A stretch of 56,235 nucleotides of DNA from Bacillota bacterium (GTDB taxonomy: Bacteria > Patescibacteriota > Minisyncoccia > Phycocordibacterales > Phycocordibacteraceae). This document shows, piece after piece, positions 6,081 to 45,525 of this stretch; position 1 is the first letter of the stretch, and every line of letters starts with the position of its first letter. The position numbers were made by a program, and so were the translations under genes. The notes beneath the pieces were generated by a model. The model did not search any database. It was not told where the DNA came from and saw nothing but the letters and a program-made list of their open reading frames with translations. The stretch spans positions 1-56,235 of the forward strand of contig JBLNCF010000012.1 of NCBI GenBank assembly GCA_050260455.1. Reading direction: 5' to 3'.

Positions 6081-7304
6081 TTATCGTGTCGTTAGGACTC
6101 TGTACCAGGGTCGTGTCGTGCGTAGAAGCTCCGCGTCCCCTGCATCAACCCGCATCTTCGTGGATACTATCAGAGGGATAAGACCAAAAAGCTTACGGTT
6201 TTCGTCAGACTGGATGTCGTATACGGCCTGATTATTTTGAGTGGTCAGCTCAATGGTTTTTGGGGTTATCGAAAGATTCTCTACGACTTGGCTTGCAGAG
6301 ACCTCGACCGGGTCGTTGCCGACCTGGAGCCCCTTGGTCGTGATGGTCACCTCGGGTGCCTGTACCTCAAGGCCCGTGTCTTTGATAACTACCGCATGGT
6401 CCGTCGGCTCAACACTGATGGATCGGTTTCCGACAGTCAGGATAAGTGCCGTATTGGTGGTCGATGCTTCCATCGTCTCTGTGCGAATAACACCCGGGGC
6501 TACCGTGAGTGGTCCGGTCTTAGCCACCAGATTACCTGCATCATACGTTCCTCCTTTCCGGAGCAGTTCTTCTACAGAGTTGCTGTGCACCGCAACCTGA
6601 CCACTCTGTATGGTGACGGGCAGTGCATTACTCTTAACGCCGGTAGCATTGGTGACGGACATTTGCACGGCTGACGAGATAGACAGGGAAGGTATTGTGA
6701 ACTCCGCATATCCATCGCTCGTTCCAGTGGTTTTTACGATCTGGGGATTCTTTACCCCAAAGGTGATGGTGAGTGGCCCGGCAAGTCCGGTACCGTGGAT
6801 CGTAGCTCGTCGCCCCGCATCAACCACACCATCCGGATTCGTTACCGACTGAATGTTAGTTATAACTGCGGGTGAAGTGGGGAGGGGGAGGTTGGGAGCC
6901 TTCGGGGTGGCCACAGGAGTTGGGGACACATAGGGCGTTTGGGGAGGCGCATTCTTGGGAACGAATATGATGATGGGGAAATAGTTGCTTCTGATTCCTG
7001 AAAGCGTGATGATCGAGACACTGACATCGATAGTCTGGAGACGACTGGGGACCGTGAAGGACACGGAAGTACCATTACCTACCGCGTTTACATACTGCGG
7101 TTCGGCATTTCCAATTTGGATGGTCAGTGGCCCTGAAAGGCCGCTACCGTACACCGTCGCGCTCTGATTAGGATAGATCGTTCCCTTCGGGGTATCTGGT
7201 GCTTGGATATCGGTAATCACGGGAACATCTGCTTGAGCGGATACGGGAGTCGAGACGCTAAATGCAAGACTGAGTACGAACAGGAGCGCGGCGAGTCTTT
7301 TCAT
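6081..7304 (-). CDS. Secreted protein with two IPT/TIG-like repeats and a C-terminal PepSY-like domain
   Basis: Signal peptide ending ..VSAQA; two repeats of VIT.IQ...AT.YG.GL.GPLTI...F.VPS; C-terminal IEL...VYDI...VDAGDAEL. Confidence 0.7.
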   Translation of the reverse strand: MKRLAALLFVLSLAFSVSTPVSAQADVPVITDIQAPDTPKGTIYPNQSATVYGSGLSGPLTIQIGNAEPQYVNAVGNGTSVSFTVPSRLQTIDVSVSIITLSGIRSNYFPIIIFVPKNAPPQTPYVSPTPVATPKAPNLPLPTSPAVITNIQSVTNPDGVVDAGRRATIHGTGLAGPLTITFGVKNPQIVKTTGTSDGYAEFTIPSLSISSAVQMSVTNATGVKSNALPVTIQSGQVAVHSNSVEELLRKGGTYDAGNLVAKTGPLTVAPGVIRTETMEASTTNTALILTVGNRSISVEPTDHAVVIKDTGLEVQAPEVTITTKGLQVGNDPVEVSASQVVENLSITPKTIELTTQNNQAVYDIQSDENRKLFGLIPLIVSTKMRVDAGDAELLRTTRPWYRVLTTR

Positions 7305-7377
7305 GTACGGAGCAAAATGGATATGCGCTCAGTATACCTAGGTTTTATAGACGCAATGGAGTAGGGAAAGGACAAGG

Positions 7378-7403
7378 AAAAGCCCCGCGAGAGCGGGGCT
7401 TTT
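7378..7403 (-). terminator. Terminator after rplT
   Basis: aaaagccccgc/gcggggctttt. Confidence 0.85.
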
Positions 7404-7418
7404 CTCTGAAGTGGCCGA

Positions 7419-7766
7419 TTAGCCGACTTTCTGTACGATCCGGGTGAAGACTTCCGGGTGCTTGGCTGCGAACTCGGAGAGGACCTTGCGGTCGAGCTCA
7501 ATGTCCTGCTTCTTCAGACCTGCGATGAACGTGCTGTACGATTTGTAGCCGTTCTCGCGGATAGCCGCATTAAGGCGAACGATCCAGAGCGAGCGGTAAT
7601 CGCTCTTGCGGTCCTTGCGGTGTGCGAAGGCATTCTTGCCTGCGTGCACCAAAGACTCCTTGGCAAGGCGCACCTTGGTCGAACGACCATGGCGGTAGCC
7701 CTTGGCGCGGAGCAAGATGTTGCGGCGGCGCTTTGCGGAATTAACTCCTCCCTTTACTCGTGACAT
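7419..7766 (-). CDS. rplT: 50S ribosomal protein L20
   Basis: MSRVKGG, AKGYR, LWIVRLNAA, YSTFI, ELDRKVLSE. Confidence 0.98.
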   Translation of the reverse strand: MSRVKGGVNSAKRRRNILLRAKGYRHGRSTKVRLAKESLVHAGKNAFAHRKDRKSDYRSLWIVRLNAAIRENGYKSYSTFIAGLKKQDIELDRKVLSEFAAKHPEVFTRIVQKVG

Positions 7767-7796
7767 ACGTGAATGGTGACTTACTAACTACGAAAA

Positions 7797-7982
7797 TTAC
7801 ACGCCCGAAAGGAAGCGGCGGCGAGAGCGAGCCGACATCTCAATGGAGGAGGCGCGCTTCTTCACACCCTTGGTGCGTCCGCGCTCCTTGGCATTGAAAT
7901 GATCCTGACCTGCCTTGCGAACGACAAGCTTGCCCTTGCGGGTCACGCGGATCCTCTTGCTGAATGACTTATTGGTTTTCAT
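7797..7982 (-). CDS. rpmI: 50S ribosomal protein L35
   Basis: MKTNKSFSKRIRVTRKGK...HFNAK; between infC and rplT; real start is ATG 7982, not 8198. Confidence 0.93.
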   Translation of the reverse strand: MKTNKSFSKRIRVTRKGKLVVRKAGQDHFNAKERGRTKGVKKRASSIEMSARSRRRFLSGV

Positions 7983-8532
7983 GGGTAGATTCTGGTTTCT
8001 TCGCACCGGCTGCCGCCTTCGGATCACGCTCGAGGATACCGGCGAAGCCCTTAGGGGACCTCGTAACCGGCTCCGCGATGCGATACGCATACGGGATGAG
8101 CATGATGAACTTCTCGAGCCGGCTCTTAAGGAATGCTTCTTCCATCCCTTTATACCGACCCTTGAGGAAAAGCTCGACACGCACCCGGTGGCCCTCATCG
8201 AGCCACTCGGCGGCCTTTTTGGCCTTCAAACGCATGTCGTTCTCTCCGGTGCCCACCTTGATCTGGACCTCCTTGGTCTCGGAAACCTTGGCTTTAGCAC
8301 GGGCAGCGCTCTCTTTCTTCTTCTGCTCGTACTGAAATTTACCATAATCCATCACTTTCGCAACGGGCGGGTTGGCTTTGGGCGAGATCTCGATCAGGTC
8401 CTGACCGGCAGCTTCGGCAGCCCGGAGAGCTTCAGAAATGGAAATAACGCCCAGGTTTTCCCCCTCGGCGCCTATGACGCGCAACTCCGGCGCGGTGATT
8501 TCTCGGTTGATGCGGACTCGTTCAGTAGCCAA
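7969..8532 (-). CDS. infC: Translation initiation factor IF-3
   Basis: RINREI, LGVISISEAL, DLIEISP..PPVAKVMDYGKFQY, KE..IK; TTG start. Confidence 0.97.
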   Translation of the reverse strand: MATERVRINREITAPELRVIGAEGENLGVISISEALRAAEAAGQDLIEISPKANPPVAKVMDYGKFQYEQKKKESAARAKAKVSETKEVQIKVGTGENDMRLKAKKAAEWLDEGHRVRVELFLKGRYKGMEEAFLKSRLEKFIMLIPYAYRIAEPVTRSPKGFAGILERDPKAAAGAKKPESTHENQ

Positions 8533-8576
8533 AGCGTTTGTATCGTTATTCTACCACGCAAAATCAAGGAAACAAG

Positions 8577-9125
8577 CTATCTGCTCACGAATGGGTTGTC
8601 CTTGATCCAGAACCGCCAGGGGAGTTCAATGCCGTTTCGGATGCCGATGCGGGGACCCGACATGATGGCGGAGGCGGGAAGTTCAGGAGCATCCTCAATG
8701 ACAAACTCTCCCCCGAGTAGGAGCCCGTTCATCTTCTTGGTGATGCCAAGGGCTTGGGTGAGCTTTGCCGGGCCGTTCGCGAGATTCTTCAGGTCAGAAA
8801 CACCACGCCTCCGGCGCATGAGCGGAATACCTTCGGTAGGTTCGATCGCACGGATAAGAATGCCTCCTGGACCCTCACCGGCCGTCACGTTTACGCAGTA
8901 GTGCATGCCGTACGTGAAGTACACATACCAATGACCATACGTTTCATGCATAAGACGACTGCGTGGAGTAAGGGTCCGGGCATGAGAAGCTGGGTCACCC
9001 ATATATGCTTCAACTTCGACAATTGTTCCTGCACAGTGTTTATGGCGGAGCGTTTTACCAAGAAGCCGCGGCGCGAGTGCCACGGCTTCTTCTTTAAACC
9101 AAGACCGGGGAAGGGGTTTTGCCAC
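8577..9125 (-). CDS. mpg: 3-methyladenine DNA glycosylase (AAG/MPG family)
   Basis: IVEVEAY, YVYFTYGMHYCVNV, ILIRAIEP, NGPAKLTQALGI, GPRIGI, PWRF. Confidence 0.96.
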   Translation of the reverse strand: MAKPLPRSWFKEEAVALAPRLLGKTLRHKHCAGTIVEVEAYMGDPASHARTLTPRSRLMHETYGHWYVYFTYGMHYCVNVTAGEGPGGILIRAIEPTEGIPLMRRRRGVSDLKNLANGPAKLTQALGITKKMNGLLLGGEFVIEDAPELPASAIMSGPRIGIRNGIELPWRFWIKDNPFVSR

Positions 9126-9388
9126 TACTTAGAAGTGGCCGGAGCCGGCGGAAGCGTCTTACTGAATGCCGAGAGCATGTCCGAAAGAGTCTGGAGGTCA
9201 TCAGCACACTTGGCGTGCTCTACCGGATCGCTGCTGGTGCAGTGTTCGCGGATAAGATCGCGCTGGGCCGTGATATTAGCCTGCGCACGCAAGCTCGCGA
9301 TGGTGGTGTGGTCATGATAAATGACGATGGCCGCGACCACGAGCAATATCACAAGCAGGGCGATAAAGATGCGGGAAAATCGGTTCAT
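9125..9388 (-). CDS. Small single-TM protein with a Cys pair
   Basis: Hydrophobic N-terminal helix, short helical domain HC...KC; TATAGT 8 nt upstream; TAGTG overlap with mpg. Confidence 0.75.
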   Translation of the reverse strand: MNRFSRIFIALLVILLVVAAIVIYHDHTTIASLRAQANITAQRDLIREHCTSSDPVEHAKCADDLQTLSDMLSAFSKTLPPAPATSK

Positions 9389-9523
9389 AGATCTTCACTA
9401 TATAGGTATAGAAGGACGTCGCAAGTATGCGGGAGTGCAGGTGAAGGGTTCCTTAATCTGTTCCTCATTTCTCCTTACTTACGATGCAGGTCTACTCATT
9501 CATTGAGTTAACCAAAACTATTT

Positions 9524-9802
9524 ATGGCTACTATTGTTAATACGCCGGGCGGCAACGATTCAGGCGGTGCAGCCGGGTGGCTTATCGGCCTCATCGTGCT
9601 CATCCTGGTGGTGCTCGCGGCTATCTTCCTGTTGCCGCGACTGGCAGCTAACCAGAATGGCACACTCCAGAACACCCGGCCTACTACTCAGGGGACAGGA
9701 TCGGGGACTGGTGACACGAATGTTGTGGTTCCACCGACGGTGAATAACACCACCATCAATTCATCGACCACCATTAACACGTCGACTACGACGGCTCCGT
9801 AA
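9524..9802 (+). CDS. Small membrane protein with a Thr/Asn-rich tail
   Basis: GGAAGWLIGLIVLILVVLAAIFLLP TM segment plus low-complexity T-rich tail; followed by a terminator. Confidence 0.8.
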   Translation: MATIVNTPGGNDSGGAAGWLIGLIVLILVVLAAIFLLPRLAANQNGTLQNTRPTTQGTGSGTGDTNVVVPPTVNNTTINSSTTINTSTTTAP

Positions 9803-37194: not shown

Positions 37195-37265
37195 AGCGGG
37201 GTAGAGGAGAGGTACCTCGGGAGGCTCATAACCTCCAGACGCCGGTTCGATTCCGGCCCCCGCAA
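37195..37265 (+). tRNA. Initiator tRNA-fMet (CAU)
   Basis: A1xA72 mismatch, A11-U24, GGAGG-CTCATAA-CCTCC, GCCGG-TTCGATT-CCGGC; TTGCTT-N16-TAGTAT promoter upstream. Confidence 0.92.
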
Positions 37266-37271
37266 CATGGA

Positions 37272-37302: not shown

Positions 37303-37340
37303 CTTTACTTCATAGCTCTAAAACGAGATATACTTTGCAT

Positions 37341-38567
37341 ATGGGAATGGAAGACCTAGCTCGTCGTGAGGTCAGCGAATCGCGCACTGAACGTGGCGAA
37401 CACGATATTCAACGTGAGCTTGCAACCGTGCGTATGCAGATGGACTCCGTGTCCGATGAAATAAAGTCCGAACATGGCATGCACACCATTTCGGCAGCCA
37501 TGGCTGCTGCTCAAGGCAAGGAGGGACCGGGTGCGTCGTCTCTATCAGCAGACAGCAGAGAATACGGTTCACTGGTGGAGAAGAAAGGATCGTTGGAAGA
37601 AGAACGAAACGAATTCTACAGAAACAATCCTGAACTGCTCGCGTCACGTCTCAAGGAGCTCTATAAGAATTCGTTACGAGAGCACCTCACTTCGGATAAA
37701 AAGCAGCTGGAAGCTTTCTTGCACGGAAGAAATGTACAAGGCGTACAGACCGCACCAAATCCGGACGATTGGTTTGTGAGGCCGAGCGGAGATTCCGAAA
37801 GCACGCGTGAATACCAGTCGCTATTAAACATACATAATGAGCTAGAGGATGCTGGTCCACATGACTCCTCAAAAGCACGTGAGTTCAGTGAATCCATATT
37901 CCGACAAGCCAATAGAGAGTTATATGAAGAATTACAGGCCAAAGACGCTCCTGCGTCTCCTCAGCCTAAACAGAGTTTCCAAGACCAGCTTTCGCCCGAA
38001 ACCGCGGAATTTGTTACGAATCGCATCGTAGAAACCGATCTTTCATATCAGGACGCTGACATACCCGAAGAACAGAAGCGGGGTATCTTGCAGGAACAGC
38101 GAGGCGCTACGAAGGGCAAGCGGTATGCAGAATCACTGGTACTCGCTTCTGAAACCGGCGGCTTAGAAGCGATACGGTCATTGGCAGATGGAATGCGAAC
38201 GACGATGCTTTCGGAAGCTGCACGCTTAGGAATTCCGGTATCTCCGTACGGAAGAAGTAAGTCGTGGGCAATGTGGGACATTGGTAAGCAGTACCATTTC
38301 TTCTCGAATCCAGATCAGAATGATCCACGATATGAAATAGGGAATCCGCTCGAATCGGAATCGAAACAAGAAGAGATGATAAATAGACACCTGGGGTGGG
38401 AAGCGTATACGGCATATCTCACGAATGAGGAATTCCGTAATCGCGTGGTTAGTGATCCGGCTTTCAAACCAGCATTAGATCTCTTCAACAAACCTCCCAA
38501 GGAACGGGGCACACTGAGTTCTTATGACCTCGCGGAACTAGGTAAGGTGCTGCGTACTGCTGGTTAG
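37341..38567 (+). CDS. Orphan acidic helical protein
   Basis: Long ORF, no TM, coiled-coil-like N-half; TATACT 6 nt before ATG 37341. Confidence 0.75.
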   Translation: MGMEDLARREVSESRTERGEHDIQRELATVRMQMDSVSDEIKSEHGMHTISAAMAAAQGKEGPGASSLSADSREYGSLVEKKGSLEEERNEFYRNNPELLASRLKELYKNSLREHLTSDKKQLEAFLHGRNVQGVQTAPNPDDWFVRPSGDSESTREYQSLLNIHNELEDAGPHDSSKAREFSESIFRQANRELYEELQAKDAPASPQPKQSFQDQLSPETAEFVTNRIVETDLSYQDADIPEEQKRGILQEQRGATKGKRYAESLVLASETGGLEAIRSLADGMRTTMLSEAARLGIPVSPYGRSKSWAMWDIGKQYHFFSNPDQNDPRYEIGNPLESESKQEEMINRHLGWEAYTAYLTNEEFRNRVVSDPAFKPALDLFNKPPKERGTLSSYDLAELGKVLRTAG

Positions 38568-38584
38568 GTATCACCTGGTACTTC

Positions 38585-40339
38585 ATGGAAGACTCAATCT
38601 TCAAAAGCCCTGTCAGGACATTCTGGTACGCTATCCGTCCCTTTCGTCTGGCGGTATTCACGCTGATGCTCCTTATCGTCATCGGCAATATCCTGACCTA
38701 TTCAACGCCGTATTTCCTCAAAGAGATCGTCGATATCGCGACCTATGGCACCACTCCCAGTTTCCAAGATTTCCTTAGACCTCTCACGTATATAGCACTC
38801 CTACTTATCGGAGCCGAAGCATGCTATCGCATAGGGCACTTGATTGAAGTGCACATTGCTCCACGAATGTTTGAACGCATTACCTCATCGCTCTTTGAGT
38901 GGCTTATTCGTCGTCCCACAGCCTATTTTGAAGAGCATCTATCGGGTGAACTTGGACGAAGAGTGGATCAGGTGGCCATGAATTTACAGTTCTTCATTGA
39001 GTATTTTCCCTGGGAGGTCGGCTGGCCCATCATGTCCGCTGTAGTTACGGCAGTTCTTCTCTATTCTGCTAACTCTCTGCTCGCGCTCTGTTTCGTGGTG
39101 TGGCTCTTAGTGTCAGTCGTTCTATCCTACGTACTCCTAAAATGGCAATATCGAACCGCGGAAGAAGTTGCTACCGCTCAGGCTCATCTAAGTGGTATGA
39201 CGGTGGATTCTCTCGCAAACGTATCCATCGTGCACACATTCGGAGCGTATCAACATGAACAGAATCTCTATGCCTCACATCTCTCGGCAGCAGTGGCGGC
39301 GGATAAGCGTGCGCGCTTTGCGTCGCTGGTGAATAAGGCACAGCAGGGAGTGAGCGTAGCGGTCTTAGGCATCGGTCTACCGTGTATCAGTGTCCTCTTA
39401 TTCTCACGTCACGCCATAACGGTCGGGGATTTTGTGCTGGTCGCGGCGACGATACCTACCGTATCAGGCGTGGTTTGGACACTGGGAGATCTATTGGTCC
39501 GAGCCATGCGTAACTATGGTGAGATGCACAGCGCACTTAAAGGCTTACGGGACACGGCGCAAGGAATCTTGGAAAAGAAGCATGGCCTTACGGTTCATGA
39601 TGCATGCGTTACATTCTCAAATGTTAGCTTCGCCTATCCGGAATCCGGCTATGCGCTCGCGCATGTCGACCTTGCGATACCTTCCGGACAAAAGGTCGGA
39701 CTGGTGGGAAGGTCAGGCGCAGGCAAGAGTACCTTCGTTAAACTACTGCTGCGGCAGTATGATCCCCTTGAAGGAACTATCCACATAGGGGACACCGATA
39801 TCTCTCGTGTCTCTCTTGAGTCGCTACGGGCGCATATCACATTTGTGCCGCAGGATACTTCCTTGTTCCAGCGCACGCTCTACGAGAACATCCTCTACGC
39901 CAAACCTAATGCTTCTTCCGAGGAAGTGCATGAAGCCGCTCGCCGAGCGCATGCCGAAGAGTTCATTCTCCAATATCCGGCGGGGTACGAGACGAAAGTA
40001 GGGGAGCGGGGCGTGAAGCTCTCGGGTGGGCAGCGACAACGCATCGCTCTTGCACGTGCGATGCTTAAGAATGCGCCGATACTCGTACTCGACGAGGCTA
40101 CGAGCGCGCTTGATAGCGAGAGCGAAGAGATTGTTCAGAAAGGATTGGCAGAATTATTCGAAGCAAAGACGGTTATCGCTATCGCACACCGCCTCTCCAC
40201 CTTAAGCGCCATGGATCGTATCATCGTGCTTGATGCCGGTCAGGTAATTGAGGACGGATCGCCGCAGGAGCTCCTGAATAAGCCCGGTTCTGTATTTAAA
40301 GAGATGTGGGAGCATCAGAAGAGCGGCTTCATTTCATAA
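38585..40339 (+). CDS. ABC exporter, fused TMD-NBD (MsbA/MdlB-like)
   Basis: Six TMs, GRSGAGKST, LSGGQRQR, LVLDEATSALD, IAHRLST. Confidence 0.96.
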   Translation: MEDSIFKSPVRTFWYAIRPFRLAVFTLMLLIVIGNILTYSTPYFLKEIVDIATYGTTPSFQDFLRPLTYIALLLIGAEACYRIGHLIEVHIAPRMFERITSSLFEWLIRRPTAYFEEHLSGELGRRVDQVAMNLQFFIEYFPWEVGWPIMSAVVTAVLLYSANSLLALCFVVWLLVSVVLSYVLLKWQYRTAEEVATAQAHLSGMTVDSLANVSIVHTFGAYQHEQNLYASHLSAAVAADKRARFASLVNKAQQGVSVAVLGIGLPCISVLLFSRHAITVGDFVLVAATIPTVSGVVWTLGDLLVRAMRNYGEMHSALKGLRDTAQGILEKKHGLTVHDACVTFSNVSFAYPESGYALAHVDLAIPSGQKVGLVGRSGAGKSTFVKLLLRQYDPLEGTIHIGDTDISRVSLESLRAHITFVPQDTSLFQRTLYENILYAKPNASSEEVHEAARRAHAEEFILQYPAGYETKVGERGVKLSGGQRQRIALARAMLKNAPILVLDEATSALDSESEEIVQKGLAELFEAKTVIAIAHRLSTLSAMDRIIVLDAGQVIEDGSPQELLNKPGSVFKEMWEHQKSGFIS

Positions 40340-40354
40340 TTCTAAATAACGAAC

Positions 40355-40684
40355 ATGACATTCGAAGAATTCCAGGCGTTCATTGATTCACAGGACGAAC
40401 TCTTCAATTCGCTCAATAAGGGTGGGGAAGGTGTGCAGCGCATCTTCGCACGCACCATTAAGATCGGCGAGGAGTATGGAGAATTGTGTGATGCTGTCCT
40501 TGCGTCCGTGGGTGACCAACGAACAGAAAAGCTTGGAGAGAGGTCTGAAATAGAAGGGGAATTCGCTGATGTGGTCATCACTACGTTTATGCTAGCGAAA
40601 GCCATGGATATAGATATGGCGTCGGCGCTTGCTGCAAAAGCAGAGAAGATAAGGGAAAAGCATAACAAGCAGCTCCTCGGCTAA
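40355..40684 (+). CDS. MazG-like nucleotide pyrophosphohydrolase
   Basis: KIGEEYGELCDAV...EGEFADVV EExxE/ExxD motif. Confidence 0.88.
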   Translation: MTFEEFQAFIDSQDELFNSLNKGGEGVQRIFARTIKIGEEYGELCDAVLASVGDQRTEKLGERSEIEGEFADVVITTFMLAKAMDIDMASALAAKAEKIREKHNKQLLG

Positions 40685-40694
40685 GGCGTCCTTC

Positions 40695-42371
40695 ATGCCT
40701 CGCTCGAACGTAATATCTGTATTGCTTGTTCGGTCCATCGTTGGGCTCGTTCTACTGTGTGCTTTAGTGAACGTGCTTTCAGCCATCACACCCGCATTAC
40801 CTGAACGTATCGAGTTTCTCCGAGATGTGTTTTCTCCTGAGTTCCGGGCCGCGAGCCGTATCGCTGCAGCGTTTTCAGGATTTGCACTTCTGCTGCTCGC
40901 ACGAGGACTTGTTCGGCGACAACGTGTAGCGTGGATACTCACTATTGTTGTGCTTCTTCTCTCGATGGCCGCACACATGATCAAAGGACTTGATATAGAA
41001 GAGGCTGCGTTAAGTAGTGTTGTGGTGGCAGTGATGCTGTATGCCCGTGGCGAGTTCTTTGCAAAATCAGATCGGCCGTCGATACAAAGTGGACTCAGTG
41101 CGCTCGGTCTCGCCCTGCTCTTCACTCTCGTATATGGAACACTAGGCTTCTTCTTTCTTGATAGACACTTCGGTCAGCATTTCAATCTAGTGGACGCATT
41201 CATTCAAACACTAAATCTATTCCTGCTCGGTCCCCAGCCGGTTGCACACACACGGTTCGCGAAATGGTTCCTGGACAGCATTTACATAATTGGATGGACC
41301 AGTCTTGGCACAGGACTTATTGCCTTTCTGCAACCGGTCATCATGCGAGGTGGTGTCAGCCAGACCGACCGTCTCCGTGCTGAACGTATTGTGCGCCAGC
41401 ACGGTCGCTCAAGTCTTGCTCGCTTCGCACTTCTGGGAGACAAGCAGTTCTATTTCCATTCATCGGGAGACTCTCTTGTTAGCTACGTGGCCGTATCGGG
41501 TATCGGGCTTGCGCTTGGTGATCCCATCGGTCCCCCTGAACGCATAGGAGAAACGGTGCAGGGTTTCGTTTCCTTCTGCGCGGGTAACGGATGGAAACCA
41601 GTTTTCTATCAAACGGCGTATGTCGAACCCTACGAATCCGCTGGACTGATGTGTCTTTCAATAGGAGAGTGTGCTCTCGTCGATGTTGCCGAGTTCACGC
41701 TCGAGGGACCGCACCATAAGGAGATACGCAATGCTTTTAGTCGTCTTACGCGCGACGGCTACCGTTTCCGGTATTATCCTGCACCCCAGCCTCCCGAACG
41801 TATCGCTCGCTTACGCAGGGTATCTGACGAATGGTTGGCGCATAAGGCAGGAAATGAAAAAAGCTTCTCATTAGGAGCCTTTGAGGAAGGCTATATACGG
41901 GAAAGTCCCGTGGTGACGCTTGAAGATTCTCATAGAAACATTGTTGCCTTTGCGAACTTAGTGCCGACAGTCGCAACAAATGAAATCGCGGTGGACCTTA
42001 TGCGACAACGAGAAATTGCTCCCACTGGAGCGATGCTCGCCGTTCTGGCAGAAGCTATACGTATTTCTAAAGAGAATGGATATCGGACATTCAATCTTGG
42101 TCTCGCACCACTTGCGGGGGTAGGGAATGAGCCTAGCGCGACTGCACTAGAGAAGGCACTTCATCTGGTCTTCGAACGGGTAACGGAACCGTATAACTTC
42201 CGCGGTCTCTATGTATTTAAAAAGAAGTTTCACCCTCGTTTCGAGACTCGATATCTAGCCTGTCCGTCGGTTCTCGATGTGATTCCTGCACTCCAGGCGG
42301 TAACGGCAGCAGATGGATCGGTAAGTCTCTGGCGGGAAGCCATTGCTGAATTGACGAGAAAAGTCCGTTAA
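40695..42371 (+). CDS. MprF/LysX-like aminoacyl-phosphatidylglycerol synthase lacking the large flippase domain
   Basis: ~6 TMs plus double GNAT domain: GDKQFYF, ALGDPIG, VSDEWL..K...EKSFSLG, VDLMR, FNLGLAPL, GL..FKKKF.P. Confidence 0.85.
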   Translation: MPRSNVISVLLVRSIVGLVLLCALVNVLSAITPALPERIEFLRDVFSPEFRAASRIAAAFSGFALLLLARGLVRRQRVAWILTIVVLLLSMAAHMIKGLDIEEAALSSVVVAVMLYARGEFFAKSDRPSIQSGLSALGLALLFTLVYGTLGFFFLDRHFGQHFNLVDAFIQTLNLFLLGPQPVAHTRFAKWFLDSIYIIGWTSLGTGLIAFLQPVIMRGGVSQTDRLRAERIVRQHGRSSLARFALLGDKQFYFHSSGDSLVSYVAVSGIGLALGDPIGPPERIGETVQGFVSFCAGNGWKPVFYQTAYVEPYESAGLMCLSIGECALVDVAEFTLEGPHHKEIRNAFSRLTRDGYRFRYYPAPQPPERIARLRRVSDEWLAHKAGNEKSFSLGAFEEGYIRESPVVTLEDSHRNIVAFANLVPTVATNEIAVDLMRQREIAPTGAMLAVLAEAIRISKENGYRTFNLGLAPLAGVGNEPSATALEKALHLVFERVTEPYNFRGLYVFKKKFHPRFETRYLACPSVLDVIPALQAVTAADGSVSLWREAIAELTRKVR

Positions 42372-42378
42372 TAAGGAA

Positions 42379-42406
42379 AAGGCGGGTCCGCAGAGCGGCC
42401 CGCCTT
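42379..42406. terminator. Hairpin between convergent genes
   Basis: aaggcggg..cgc/gcg..cccgcctt. Confidence 0.7.
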
Positions 42407-42428
42407 CCAAGTGAGAGCAAAATCAGGT

Positions 42429-44003
42429 CTATTGCCGTAAGACCATCACCAATACAGTAACGAGGCCACGAGACTCGAAGATCGGGTACGATTGCTCGAT
42501 GTGATAACCACGACTCAGGAGCGGTTGGACTCCCGCATCCTCTTTCGCCAGGTGTATGACATCGAGAATGTTCCCGGGCAACCCGTGCGTCACGCAGCCG
42601 TGTTCGAGTGGTGACGACGAATGGCTTGCGGTTCTCGTCAGGGGCTCGGGGACTGCATCATGGGTGGAATGTTGCGTAGTCGCCGGAGTCTCGGTACCAC
42701 GCTTCTTACGAGGAACGGTAACCTTGTCAGCCGTCTGGATTTTTCGCGTCCTGGCAGGCGCCCGCGGCGGTTGGATACTTTCGGAGCTGTACGCCTCCTT
42801 CAGTAATTTCCAGCGATACTTGGCCCATTCGGGATGTCTGCCCTGCACTCCAGTCGGGGTACTCAAGCCGACCTGGCCATACAGAGTCGATATGACCGCC
42901 AACACCGAGTTAACGTTGCCTCCGGCCTTACGCTGGAGTTCCTCACGGGATGGGTAGTCGTCGAACGAGACAAAGTGATCTAGGATCACTCGGAAACGCG
43001 GCGGAAGCTCATTGATGCCGGTTACCATCCGCTCGATAGAGGGCGGAGTGTAGGACTCGGGCAGTACCAATGGCCCCCACACCTTGGTCTTCGTCGATTT
43101 TGCGCGGCGAGTCCTCGGCACTGGAGCTTTCCGGTTCTTCTTCTCGACACCCGTTTCGTCCTGGACCACTGCCGGGATTTCCGGAGCGGGTGAGGGTTCG
43201 TTCGCTATCTCGGGTTGAGAGTTGGTCGTCTCCGTTGCAGGTTCCGAAGCTGGGGCCGAAGCGGCTGGTTCCGAAGGTGCCGGTAGGATCGCTTCTGCGG
43301 AAGATGGGACGGGCTGCGCAGGCTGGGAAGCCGGCGCATTCGGTACATCCTCCACGAACCCCGCGGCCTCGATCGAGAGCTTGCGCCGTTCCTCGTAGCT
43401 AAGGGCGAGGGGGAGCTTGAGTGCTTGGAAGATGTTGCTGAAACGCGTCCGGACTGCTTTGACCGTAACGTTCATAGCTTCTGCGTCGGTAAGGTGCGCA
43501 GCGAGATCCTCATCTCCCATCTGCGCGGCCAGCTTCAGGAATTTCAGCTGCTGGCTGCTCAGACGTAGACGGGACTGCGCCTCGTCTGCGGTGACTCGCG
43601 TTCCGGCGGAGGATCCGCCCGGTTGGGTGCCGTCCATGGGCTCGGTTCCTTCTAGAATTTTGATTGTTGTCTTGCTTAGCCGAAACGTCGGCACAGATTC
43701 ACGTAATGGCGTCGGTGGTGCCGGAGTCTTAGGCAACTTTGCGTATCTTTCGAGCGCTTCCGCAATGATGCGGTTGCGCTGAGGATGACGCTTAAGGCCG
43801 GGCACCCTCGAGAAGAAGGTGTCGATGTGGTAATCGACTAGGTCTGGGTGTCTACCCAGAATCTTGCCGATCTCTTTCTTGTCCTTGCCTTCGGCCAACA
43901 GCCGAGGATATTCGTGGTGATAGGGTTCCGGGTCCTGGACCAGGGCCCGAACAACATCATCCGCCAGTGTCTCGTCTGGCTGTCGCGCACTGTCCAAAGG
44001 CAT
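42429..44003 (-). CDS. Orphan with three LuxR-like HTH modules and Pro/Ala-rich linkers
   Basis: LLAEGKDKKEIGKILG..DLVDYHI; LSSQQLKFLKL..AEAMNVTVKAVRTRFSNIFQAL; LPPRFRVIL..SREELQRKAG.NVNSV...ISTLYGQV; GGGGAGG SD 5 nt before ATG. Confidence 0.7.
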   Translation of the reverse strand: MPLDSARQPDETLADDVVRALVQDPEPYHHEYPRLLAEGKDKKEIGKILGRHPDLVDYHIDTFFSRVPGLKRHPQRNRIIAEALERYAKLPKTPAPPTPLRESVPTFRLSKTTIKILEGTEPMDGTQPGGSSAGTRVTADEAQSRLRLSSQQLKFLKLAAQMGDEDLAAHLTDAEAMNVTVKAVRTRFSNIFQALKLPLALSYEERRKLSIEAAGFVEDVPNAPASQPAQPVPSSAEAILPAPSEPAASAPASEPATETTNSQPEIANEPSPAPEIPAVVQDETGVEKKNRKAPVPRTRRAKSTKTKVWGPLVLPESYTPPSIERMVTGINELPPRFRVILDHFVSFDDYPSREELQRKAGGNVNSVLAVISTLYGQVGLSTPTGVQGRHPEWAKYRWKLLKEAYSSESIQPPRAPARTRKIQTADKVTVPRKKRGTETPATTQHSTHDAVPEPLTRTASHSSSPLEHGCVTHGLPGNILDVIHLAKEDAGVQPLLSRGYHIEQSYPIFESRGLVTVLVMVLRQ

Positions 44004-44125
44004 GACGCCCTCCCCTGTATGTGAAAGACCCGAAGGTCTGTGCGGATTATGAATGCGGCGCAGGGTTCCGGCAAGGTGGCGTTTGCGGTGGCCAAACCGT
44101 TGGTTTAATATGTGTTTAACTATTT

Positions 44126-44437
44126 ATGCTTAATGCCGCCGAGGTACAGAAACTGCAACGCACGCTTACTCGAGAGGACGAACGACTCCCCATTGTCTTC
44201 AGTGCTCTCGGTGACCCACGGCGGTGCAAGATCTTCCGAAGTTTTCTTACGCGTGATCGGTTGTGCGTCAGCGACATTGCACATACCTTTAAAATTTCTA
44301 TGTCACTCGCGTCTCAACATTTAAAGATCCTGGAAATTACTAAACTCCTCGTTCGTGAGAAGGAAGGTCGCACGGTCTACTTTAGAGCGAATACAAAAGA
44401 CGACCTCGTGCGGGCGATTATCAAAGCAGTGCAATAA
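44126..44437 (+). CDS. ArsR/SmtB family transcriptional regulator
   Basis: FSALGDPRR.KI, LCVSDIA, S.ASQHLKIL, REKEGRTVYF. Confidence 0.94.
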   Translation: MLNAAEVQKLQRTLTREDERLPIVFSALGDPRRCKIFRSFLTRDRLCVSDIAHTFKISMSLASQHLKILEITKLLVREKEGRTVYFRANTKDDLVRAIIKAVQ

Positions 44438-44438
44438 T

Positions 44439-45155
44439 ATGGAGAAACTTACGTATCAGAGCAAGCGTGAAATAGCAGAGGGAACGATGGAGTTCACATT
44501 CTCTCGGCCCGAGGGATTCAACTATCAAGCAGGACAGACTATTGATCTGACCCTTATCAATCTGCCGGAAATGGACGCGGAAGGGAATATGCGTACGTTC
44601 TCGCTGGTATCGGCGCCTCACGAACCGGTGTTAAAGACCGCTACACGCATGCGGGATACTGCATTCAAGCGAACGCTCAAGCACATGGAGCCGGGAACGG
44701 AGATTGGGTACGAAGGACCATTCGGTTCGTTTCTGCTTCACGAGAACACGTCGCGGCCCGCCGTGTTCCTTGCAGGTGGTATCGGTATTACTCCGTTCCA
44801 CTCTATGATTTCGGATGCTACTCATCGAGCACTCCCGCATACGATATTCCTCTTCTACTCTAACCGCCGACCGGAAGATGCAGCATTTCTGGATGAACTC
44901 CAAGGGTTTGCCGAGAAGAATCCGAATTTCACGCTTGTTGCGACGATGACCGATATGGAGAAATCGAATCAGACCTGGGAAGGAGAGCGTGGTTACATTG
45001 ATGCGTCGATGCTTTCTCGCCATCTGTCTCCTGACGTCAACCCTGTCTACTATCTGGCAGGTCCCCAGACTATGGTTACGGCCATGCGTACGATGCTTAA
45101 CGGCATGGGGGTCAGTAACGACGACATTCGGTTTGAGGAATTCGCCGGATACTAG
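44439..45155 (+). CDS. Ferredoxin-NADP reductase-like FAD/NAD(P) oxidoreductase
   Basis: AGQ, RTFSLVS, GPFGSF, FLAGGIGITP, YYLAGP..MV, EEF; start at ATG 44439. Confidence 0.93.
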   Translation: MEKLTYQSKREIAEGTMEFTFSRPEGFNYQAGQTIDLTLINLPEMDAEGNMRTFSLVSAPHEPVLKTATRMRDTAFKRTLKHMEPGTEIGYEGPFGSFLLHENTSRPAVFLAGGIGITPFHSMISDATHRALPHTIFLFYSNRRPEDAAFLDELQGFAEKNPNFTLVATMTDMEKSNQTWEGERGYIDASMLSRHLSPDVNPVYYLAGPQTMVTAMRTMLNGMGVSNDDIRFEEFAGY

Positions 45156-45159
45156 GTGT

Positions 45160-45525
45160 ATGGACGATTTCGTTATCTACGAAAAGCCAACGTGTTCGAA
45201 GTGTCGTGCCGCTTCTGCGCTTCTGGATGCCGCTGGACGCCCGTATCGCCGCATCCGCTATCACGAAGAACGAATTCCGGCCGAGAAACTGCGAGAGCTT
45301 ATCGTGAAAAGCGGATTACCGCCCCAGGAATTCGTGCGCACCAAAGAAGACTCTTTTAAGAAGCTAAAACGCCCGGTGAGCCAACTGTCGCTCGATGATA
45401 TCGTCTCGCTGCTTGCGGCTGATCCTGATCTAATTGAGCGTCCCATTCTTGAGTGCGGAAGTCGAGTGACGCTTGGTCGTCCCACTGAACGGGCTGCCGC
45501 ATTCATTGCGGAATGCTCTCGCTAG
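45160..45525 (+). CDS. ArsC/Spx/YffB family thioredoxin-fold protein
   Basis: YEKPTCSKCRAA, PDLIERPI; start at ATG 45160. Confidence 0.88.
   Translation: MDDFVIYEKPTCSKCRAASALLDAAGRPYRRIRYHEERIPAEKLRELIVKSGLPPQEFVRTKEDSFKKLKRPVSQLSLDDIVSLLAADPDLIERPILECGSRVTLGRPTERAAAFIAECSR

Follow-up and report, generated by a model that had tools for sequence, protein, structure and literature searches.

A sensor-less protein with LuxR-like helix-turn-helix modules encoded in a patescibacterial genome, and its small family

What might be the role of a protein that is built of helix-turn-helix (HTH) modules and carries no sensor domain? This question is raised by a gene on the minus strand of contig JBLNCF010000012.1 in the assembly GCA_050260455.1, obtained from a member of the Patescibacteriota. 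The whole stretch of DNA that was analyzed, 56,235 nucleotides (nt) in length (C12:1-56235, hereafter "the window"), is part of a 690-kb genome that is 98% complete. An earlier note, made from the sequence of the window, described the product of this gene (here referred to as P0001) as a chain of three LuxR-like HTH modules of ∼65 amino acid residues (aa) each, which end in similar helices, are joined by long linkers, and are followed by a small α/β domain, and considered it a multivalent DNA-bridging or nucleoid protein or a mimic of sigma factor region 4 (sigma-4). The current analysis suggests, with roughly even confidence, that P0001 is an accessory, stand-alone, sensor-less regulator of the LuxR superfamily with a division of labor between its HTH modules (heads). 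Members of the candidate phyla radiation (CPR, or Patescibacteria) have very few recognizable transcription factors, and their gene regulation is largely mysterious; P0001 adds a protein family that has been missed by every curated library.

The gene, its family and the LuxR-like modules

The single 524-aa open reading frame (ORF) described in the earlier note is a genuine gene with a sound start, as judged from its codon score, the Shine-Dalgarno sequence, and the promoter-like pair of elements upstream (Table 1), as well as from the alignment of its start with those of its relatives. The log-odds score for codon usage, derived from 283 long ORFs of this genome, is 0.075 in frame versus −0.10 to −0.38 in the five other frames, and the GC fractions at the three codon positions (0.64/0.48/0.65) are typical of the long ORFs of the genome. 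The in-frame score lies near the 5th percentile of these long ORFs, taken as real genes. Within P0001, it is highest in the region of the second module and lowest in the C-terminal tail (−0.011 over the last 150 codons).

Table 1. Features of the P0001 gene and of the di-GerE proteins found in the same class
Feature	Residues	Coordinates	Strand	Description	Basis
P0001, whole coding sequence	1-524	42429..44003	-	524 aa plus TAG stop	ORF list, translation, codon score, eight homologues
N-module	10-90	43734..43976	-	Five-helix LuxR-like HTH (H10-23, H27-37, H42-49, H53-66, H76-88)	AF2 pLDDT, hhalign
Linker 1	91-138	43590..43733	-	Pro-rich, predicted disordered	17% Pro, pI 9.7, pLDDT <50 for 97-137, poorly conserved
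Module 2 (M2)	139-214	43362..43589	-	LuxR-like HTH private to P0001, recognition helix TVKAVRTR	
Linker 2	215-320	43044..43361	-	Pro/Ala/Ser/Glu-rich, then Lys/Arg-rich; predicted disordered	19% Pro
C-module	321-410	42774..43043	-	Five-helix LuxR-like HTH (H323-331, H335-345, H353-360, H364-378, H391-405)	
C-terminal tail	411-524	42432..42773	-	Unconserved, predicted disordered	
Shine-Dalgarno sequence		44008..44015	-	GGGGAGGG, strong, ends 4-5 nt before ATG	Read from sequence
Promoter-like core		44046..44074	-	TTGCCG, 17 nt, CATAAT	Consensus scan
Di-GerE proteins		G093:C1:12502-12861; G328:C50:1154-1543; G207:C1:10817-11194		181 aa (G093), 158 aa (G328); loci L022, L034/L038, L025/L036	
AF2, AlphaFold2; pLDDT, predicted local distance difference test score; pI, isoelectric point.

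An exhaustive HMMER scan of 1.84 billion representative proteins retrieved nine further proteins. Eight of them are true relatives of 198 to 351 aa, with E values from 1e-31 to 6e-8; the ninth proved to be a repeat-protein artefact and was rejected. A word-indexed search of 5.8 billion proteins with P0001 as a query returned only P0001 itself, the family alignment and a linker-free alignment retrieved nothing in similar searches except the query or three to four members already known, and no relatives were added by scanning 185,579 species genomes and the JGI metagenomes with patterns. P0001 had no matches at the cutoff in Pfam or NCBIfam; the sole line in the Pfam output was Sigma70_r4_2, with an E value of 0.16, at residues 174 to 190. 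No description of such an architecture was found in the literature searched. This is a tiny, undescribed, fast-evolving, new family built on a familiar fold.

The alignment of the nine sequences reveals a family core that consists of the N-module (residues ∼10 to 90 in P0001), a poorly conserved Pro-rich linker, the C-module (residues ∼321 to 410), and a short basic tail. The N-module, conserved in the eight members in which it is complete, is marked by the motifs PYHxEYPRLL, DIVxxHxDRF, and VPGLxxHP, and the C-module by LxxxQRxxLD, P.R.EL, S..A..S.LF..LGL, and W...RF.LLK.AY.SEGI.P. The length of the linker varies across the family from ∼40 to ∼230 residues, and the number of modules varies as well, since P0005 carries a duplicated C-module (N-C-C′). 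M2 (residues ∼139 to 214), the long linker 2, and the last ∼110 residues of P0001 have no counterpart in any relative. The chain of three modules envisaged earlier therefore holds for P0001 itself, which indeed has no recognizable sensor domain and matches no curated family, but not for the conserved family, in which only two modules are shared and the middle one is private to P0001.

The long linkers noted earlier are evident: they contain 17 to 19% Pro, and the pLDDT of the AF2 model is <50 over most of their length. For linker 2, which is unalignable among the relatives, the mean pLDDT is below ∼55 over residues 215 to 300 and mostly <50 over residues 215 to 263. Some 15 to 20 residues past the N-module, in an otherwise unconserved part of the linker, proteins P0001 to P0005 share a short stretch (VPTFRLS, VRRSFHS, LRTLHNT, HRLSFHT, and GRRFSLA, respectively) that combines Arg-x-x-Phe/Leu with Ser/Thr; in P0001, it occupies residues ∼100 to 110 (window positions ∼43674 to 43706). 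A role in docking or phosphorylation is conceivable for this linear motif. The proposal of a small C-terminal α/β domain, on the other hand, is not supported. Residues 411 to 524 are absent from the relatives, which end about 10 to 20 residues past the C-module, and produce no match to Pfam, the Protein Data Bank (PDB), or the LuxR, N-module, and C-module profiles. In the AF2 model, their pLDDT is mostly <50, with a terminal helix at residues 512 to 523 only. This tail is possibly a recent 3′ extension of the gene.

In the AF2 model, built from the nine-sequence alignment, blocks covering residues 10 to 90 and 320 to 410 have pLDDT values of 81 to 94 (84 to 94 for the N-module blocks) and share the same five-helix pattern; modeled alone, the C-module has a pLDDT of 89 and a predicted template modeling score (pTM) of 0.78. 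M2 displays the same pattern with pLDDT values of 52 to 70. The modules end in the helices named in the earlier note (QRNRIIAEAL in H76-88, ERRKLSIEAA in H203-214, and YRWKLLKEAY in H391-405) but are larger than the ∼65 aa given there, comprising ∼80 to 90 aa and five helices each. Foldseek comparison of the full model with the PDB yielded almost exclusively LuxR/FixJ/GerE domains (RhlR, EL222, SdiA, LiaR, GerE, ComA, TraR, NarL, DosR, VraR, DegU, and RcsB), with probabilities of 0.9 to 1.0, template modeling (TM) scores of 0.6 to 0.72 for isolated domains, and a root mean square deviation (rmsd) of ∼3 Å. For the C-module alone, the matches were to LuxR/FixJ-type regulators, among them FixJ and EL222 (2.4 to 2.7 Å over 82 columns), as well as to sigma region 4. 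Because the same PDB targets were aligned with different lengths and identities in these searches (for example, 8a5r over 75 columns at 25% in one and 82 columns at 16% in the other), at least two of the modules yield LuxR matches.

Profile comparisons point in the same direction. They used 14 LuxR yardsticks, namely, the C-terminal domains of seven proteins from Escherichia coli K-12 (UvrY, SdiA, NarL, NarP, RcsB, UhpA, and CsgD) and seven canonical GerE modules from Paceibacteria, along with six sigma region 4 segments from E. coli. Against LuxR domains, hhalign gave probabilities of 91 to 92.5% for the N-module profile (P values of 5e-7 to 1e-6) and 80 to 88% for the C-module profile (P values of 3e-6 to 1.4e-5), both in the correct helix register; with all 14 domains, the respective values were 92% and 88%. 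None of 40 column shuffles of either profile reached its score against the seven E. coli domains. M2, a single sequence, aligned with the 14 domains in the right register over 47 columns (score of 23.7, 41%, P value of 2.8e-4); this score exceeded those of all 200 shuffles (maximum of 22.3) and of 300 random native 90-aa windows of the genome (maximum of 20.3). The assignment of the N- and C-modules as LuxR-like HTHs is thus well supported by the models and profiles, and that of M2 is moderately supported, so that the earlier claim of three HTH modules stands for the first and the third and, with lesser strength, for the middle one.

Against the sigma-4 yardstick, the N-module, C-module, and M2 scored 1.3%, 7.6%, and 1.6%, respectively, whereas LuxR and sigma-4 domains, compared as a control, recognized each other at 96%. 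Because the profiles of the N- and C-modules reach 91% and 80% with LuxR in this comparison and show little affinity to sigma-4 even though the yardsticks detect each other, these modules are of the LuxR type rather than the sigma-4 type. The interpretation of P0001 as a sigma-4 mimic is accordingly disfavored, and its reading as a sigma factor was rejected on these scores and on the absence of a Sigma70_r2 (region 2) match.

The modules show little mutual similarity in sequence. BLASTP detected no match between them, and the hhalign probability for the N versus C profiles is 1.7%; what remains is a weak signal obtained only with family-based hidden Markov models, in that the C-module model of the relatives produces weak in-register secondary matches to the N-module (residues 42 to 90) and M2 (residues 177 to 203), which are above all 200 shuffles. 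Searches of PDB and Pfam with the module profiles gave only subthreshold matches that lean toward HTH proteins and domains (NarL, DosR, VraR, RpoD, PerR, GerE, HTH_38, HTH_23, and Sigma70_r4_2), and M2 alone retrieved nothing in a PDB sequence search.

Recognition helices and the proposed roles of the heads

The recognition helix of NarL touches bases through Lys188, Val189, and Lys192 and the backbone through His190 (PMC10853779). In the hhalign register, all eight complete N-modules carry Asp or Glu at the positions equivalent to both Lys188 and Lys192; in the 14 yardstick LuxR domains, acidic residues are found at these positions in none and two cases, respectively. The corresponding helix of P0001 includes the acidic residues Asp57 and Asp61. 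The residues that are invariant in the N-head are Tyr28, His29, Tyr32, and His59, the last being the retained His of the recognition helix. Given the conserved Asp/Glu residues at the base-contacting positions, the N-head is probably not a DNA reader. Across the family, the pI values of the N-modules range from 4.6 to 9.0, and those of the C-modules, from 7.9 to 10.4; in basicity, the latter equal genuine LuxR DNA-binding domains. The recognition helix of the C-head is rich in Ser, Ala, and Thr, with Leu/Ala and Ser at the positions of Lys188 and Lys192. The M2 helix TVKAVRTR is of the canonical basic type, with Lys at the position of Lys188 and an Arg next to it.

The family plan thus consists of two strongly diverged heads of the LuxR type, which carry one extra N-terminal helix each and are connected by a long, disordered, Pro-rich tether. 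P0001 adds to this plan a third LuxR-like head within the linker, the one with the TVKAVRTR helix, and a probably disordered C-terminal extension of ∼110 residues. The gene has a conserved promoter of its own and is transcribed divergently from its upstream neighbor. In the scheme proposed here, the protein most likely serves as a stand-alone accessory transcriptional regulator. The basic C-head and, in P0001, the inserted middle head are predicted to bind DNA, whereas the N-head keeps the fold but would more likely have a regulatory role or contact other proteins, and it might block the DNA-binding head in cis. The DNA binding, the division of labor, and any regulon are all putative, as they are deduced from the sequences. 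If this division of labor is true, the family would show in a compact form how a DNA-binding domain comes to be used for regulation, and it would be another sign that CPR bacteria build their regulators by chaining LuxR modules.

A bolder version of this scheme, which we consider unlikely, holds that the N-head is an HTH turned into an input or autoinhibitory module that either senses a small cation or ligand or mimics DNA and thereby occupies the C-head in cis until released. Such a role would be expected to run through the acidic residues of the helix and the invariant Tyr-His/Tyr/His cluster. If true, the "sensor-less" protein would carry a sensor disguised as a second DNA-binding domain, and the family would belong to a modular, rapidly retuned repertoire of regulators peculiar to ultrasmall bacteria.

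Several observations weigh against the reading of P0001 as a LuxR-superfamily regulator with a division of labor. The full-length protein does not match Pfam GerE (LuxR_C, PF00196), whose gathering cutoff is 23.5 bits. The N-module of P0001 scores 11.1 bits (E value of 0.31), the best family N-modules reach an E value of 0.0041 in two of the eight members, still below the cutoff, none of the C-modules match, and a six-frame scan of the whole genome found no GerE match at an E value of ≤0.01; there is no canonical GerE domain in this genome. The E values of the Foldseek matches are all between 0.2 and 3, which makes them evidence at the level of the fold only, and no single sequence or Foldseek match is conventionally significant by itself. 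The family alignment includes just nine sequences, so the AF2 models are built on shallow alignments, and M2 and the tail are each represented by a single sequence. The near absence of Lys and Arg from the recognition helix of the C-head is unusual for a domain that reads DNA. Upstream of the family genes, no operator, inverted repeat, or repeated or shared site is seen beyond the promoter core, and the promoter motif is not clearly distinct from the ordinary promoters of the genome. The loci examined contain no conserved neighbor or operon partner that would point to a regulon. Being below the curated GerE threshold, P0001 is not filed as a member of Pfam GerE; by fold and profile similarity, its heads are assigned as remote members of the LuxR/FixJ/GerE superfamily.

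LuxR domains usually act as dimers on paired half-sites. NarL exemplifies this mode of binding (PMC10853779). P0001 could accordingly be a covalent pseudo-dimer or pseudo-trimer, all heads of which bind DNA, reading two or three half-sites or bridging or looping distant sites by means of flexible tethers. The occurrence of two to three folds of the LuxR type within a single chain, the basic stretches that flank the heads, the variable number of modules in the family, and the existence of compact di-GerE proteins in the same class all fit this option. However, the acidic residues at both NarL Lys positions and the neutral to acidic pI of the N-head make multivalent bridging by all heads, as proposed in the earlier note, doubtful; a linker that varies from ∼40 to ∼230 residues sets no fixed geometry of half-sites, and there are no repeated sites in the control region of the gene itself. 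Binding of DNA by all heads thus appears rather unlikely. The opposite option, that none of the heads bind DNA and all serve as protein-protein interaction modules (an RNA polymerase- or regulator-binding adaptor, an anti-activator, or a sigma-4-like decoy), with the linkers as spacers, is suggested by the acidic helix of the N-head and the Lys/Arg-poor helix of the C-head, by the presence, among the Foldseek matches of the C-head, of sigma region 4 bound to its partner proteins, and by the location of three of the eight relatives (in two independent contexts) next to histidine kinase genes or operons. In the RapF-ComA complex, a protein partner reportedly occupies the DNA-binding surface of this very fold. 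Still, the profiles match LuxR and not sigma-4, the C-heads are no less basic than genuine LuxR domains, the M2 helix is canonical and basic, and no conserved partner gene was found, which leaves this option improbable, somewhat more so than DNA binding by all heads.

One more interpretation would treat P0001 as a decaying or functionless orphan, a drifting LuxR-type remnant in which the low-complexity stretches and the tail have arisen through slippage and the loss of a stop codon. Its extreme rarity and very fast divergence, the coding score that is near the 5th percentile overall and about zero in the tail, and the private insert and tail without relatives are what such a remnant might look like. 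On the other side stand nine intact ORFs in different genomes, which keep the two modules, the invariant residues, the start, and the Shine-Dalgarno sequence; a promoter core common to eight upstream regions; modules that are folded confidently; and an insert with the best codon score in the gene. We regard decay as very unlikely. The regulator with a division of labor, which remains the best explanation, would make an unusual use of the LuxR fold, placing several heads on long disordered tethers, one of them with an acidic DNA-reading surface. The practical weight of this family is limited; only nine sequences are available, and none of them comes from a cultured organism.

Similarities to and differences from known regulators

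P0001 heads share the tetrahelical HTH fold, as detected by Foldseek, with GerE from Bacillus subtilis (PDB 1fse/6jqs) and with the C-terminal domains of regulators of the NarL/FixJ family, namely, NarL (1je8), DosR (1zlj), VraR (7ve4), LiaR (4wt0), EL222 (3p7n), and FixJ (5xt2). The register matches that of the LuxR domains, including the L-x-x-R start, a hydrophobic pair similar to T-V, and the invariant His of the N-head, and the extra helix that precedes the HTH superposes on the linker helix of FixJ and EL222 (82 columns, 2.4 to 2.7 Å). Similarly to GerE, P0001 has neither a receiver nor a ligand-binding domain. Unlike the stand-alone proteins of the GerE/NarL type, members of this family are below the curated GerE thresholds and contain two to three heads per chain, not one, on long disordered tethers. 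They also differ from LuxR domains in the longer loop, of 9 to 13 residues, that leads from the recognition helix to the last one, as well as in the acidic helix of the N-head and the Ser/Ala-rich helix of the C-head.

The rule that a LuxR-type HTH occurs once per protein, fused to another domain, is not a strict one. Canonical GerE domains are rare in the class, being found in 13 of 301 genomes, and three of these 13 encode two GerE domains back-to-back in one small sensor-less protein of ∼158 to 201 aa (Table 1). This compact di-LuxR architecture seems to be undescribed. Like P0001, the di-GerE proteins of Paceibacteria are sensor-less chains that consist solely of LuxR-type modules and show a patchy distribution. 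However, their modules are canonical (99.6% in hhalign comparison with LuxR domains from E. coli) and are separated by short linkers, in contrast to the 40- to 230-residue disordered tethers and the acidic-helix head in the P0001 family. With hhalign probabilities of 84% (N-module) and 73% (C-module) against the di-GerE proteins versus 91% and 80% against the E. coli LuxR domains, this family is no closer to the former than to the latter.

Sigma-70 region 4 belongs to the same structural superfamily, and the Foldseek matches of the C-head include region 4 of SigD, SigA, SigE, and sigma-32; weak Sigma70_r4_2 matches are also seen in Pfam. Unlike sigma-4, the modules of P0001 contain a helix after the recognition helix, as is the case in LuxR, and are not accompanied by sigma region 2. 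In its inferred plan, in which a head that does not bind DNA is joined through a disordered linker to a basic head that does and that has basic tails, P0001 would also resemble bipartite architectural or silencing proteins of the H-NS/Lsr2 type, where a flexible linker connects an interaction head with a DNA-binding one. It has no sequence or fold relationship to them and no predicted oligomerization coiled coil, and it is far too rare for a nucleoid protein.

Distribution, gene neighborhood and upstream region

Among 222 species genomes of the genus, the family profile found matches only in the one encoding P0001 and in G041, and it had no other match among 400 genomes sampled from the class. 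In G041, a close relative, housekeeping proteins are syntenic and 80 to 87% identical to those in the genome of P0001, whereas its family member, P0008, is only ∼30% identical to P0001 and is encoded at a different locus, within a segment of ∼5 kb for which the P0001 genome offers no strong match. The contig that encodes P0005 (locus L003) shares with the window the gatA gene (77%), a gene for a 206-aa protein, and tRNA-Met; P0005 lies about 200 nt from tRNA-Met, in a convergent orientation to it, and is 38% (N-module) and 28% (C-module) identical to P0001. Family members are rare and only ∼30% identical, as compared to 77 to 87% for the neighboring housekeeping proteins; the family thus diverges far more rapidly than the genes around it and shows the behavior of an accessory gene. 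Such a distribution and such a rate of evolution make the nucleoid-protein function suggested in the earlier note unlikely.

In the window, tRNA-Met (positions 37195 to 37266) and the P0001 gene are separated by ∼5 kb (positions 37335 to 42371) that contain four genes, coding for a 410-aa protein of unknown function, an ABC exporter, MazG, and an MprF-like synthase with the LPG_synthase_C domain; the MprF-like gene is missing from 30 other genomes of the genus. This block beside the tRNA looks like an insertion, or else like a deletion in the relative. There is no integrase or mobile-element gene in the neighborhood of P0001, and the flank opposite the tRNA shows no synteny with the positional orthologue. 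Comparison of the nine family members with the PHROGs and PADLOC models gave no meaningful match, and the viral fold library yielded only single-domain HTH proteins of the CsgD/LuxR type; a phage or defense origin, which lacks any link in these three resources, was rejected.

At every locus where the upstream neighbor is visible, it is transcribed divergently from the family gene. This neighbor encodes ArsR next to P0001 and COX2 next to P0006; P0002 and P0004 each face a gene for a membrane histidine kinase, P0003 faces a FIST-kinase-receiver operon, and the neighbors at the other loci code for proteins of unknown function. The divergent arrangement, with a histidine kinase gene or operon on the other side in three of the eight relatives, fits a regulator. 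P0001 itself faces, across an intergenic region of 122 bp (positions 44004 to 44125), a unit of genes for ArsR, an FNR-like reductase, and an ArsC family protein at positions 44126 to 45525. The membrane kinases encoded at L004 (positions 3 to 671) and L005 (positions 267 to 2279) are orthologous 670-aa HisKA/HATPase_c proteins with N termini that are 88% identical, and the FIST-HisKA-receiver operon is found at L014 (positions 6899 to 9799), also divergent from the family gene.

All eight family genes examined are preceded by the same layout, TTGC followed after 17 to 19 nt by CATA[A/C]T, and by a strong Shine-Dalgarno sequence; the −35 element of this core reads (C)TTGC. In seven of these eight upstream regions (from the window, L003, L004, L005, L013, L014, L016, and L017), [C/T]AGA is found 3 to 6 nt past CATA[A/C]T. 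The pattern CATA[AC]T[CG]N3-6CAGA has six copies in the 690-kb genome, and only the copy at P0001 is accompanied by TTGC at −35; the commonest −10 word of this genome is TATACT. The family gene and its promoter may move as a single cassette. A hairpin whose TTCG tetraloop is closed by a perfect 5-bp stem (AGACC-TTCG-GGTCT, minus strand, window positions 44026 to 44039) starts 6 nt past the −10-like box, near the likely 5′ end of the transcript, and small hairpins are found at the equivalent place in some of the relatives. The 2-kb bin that covers most of the gene (positions 42000 to 44000) has a GC content of 57% versus 51 to 52% in the flanking bins, largely because of the Pro/Ala-rich codons of the linkers.

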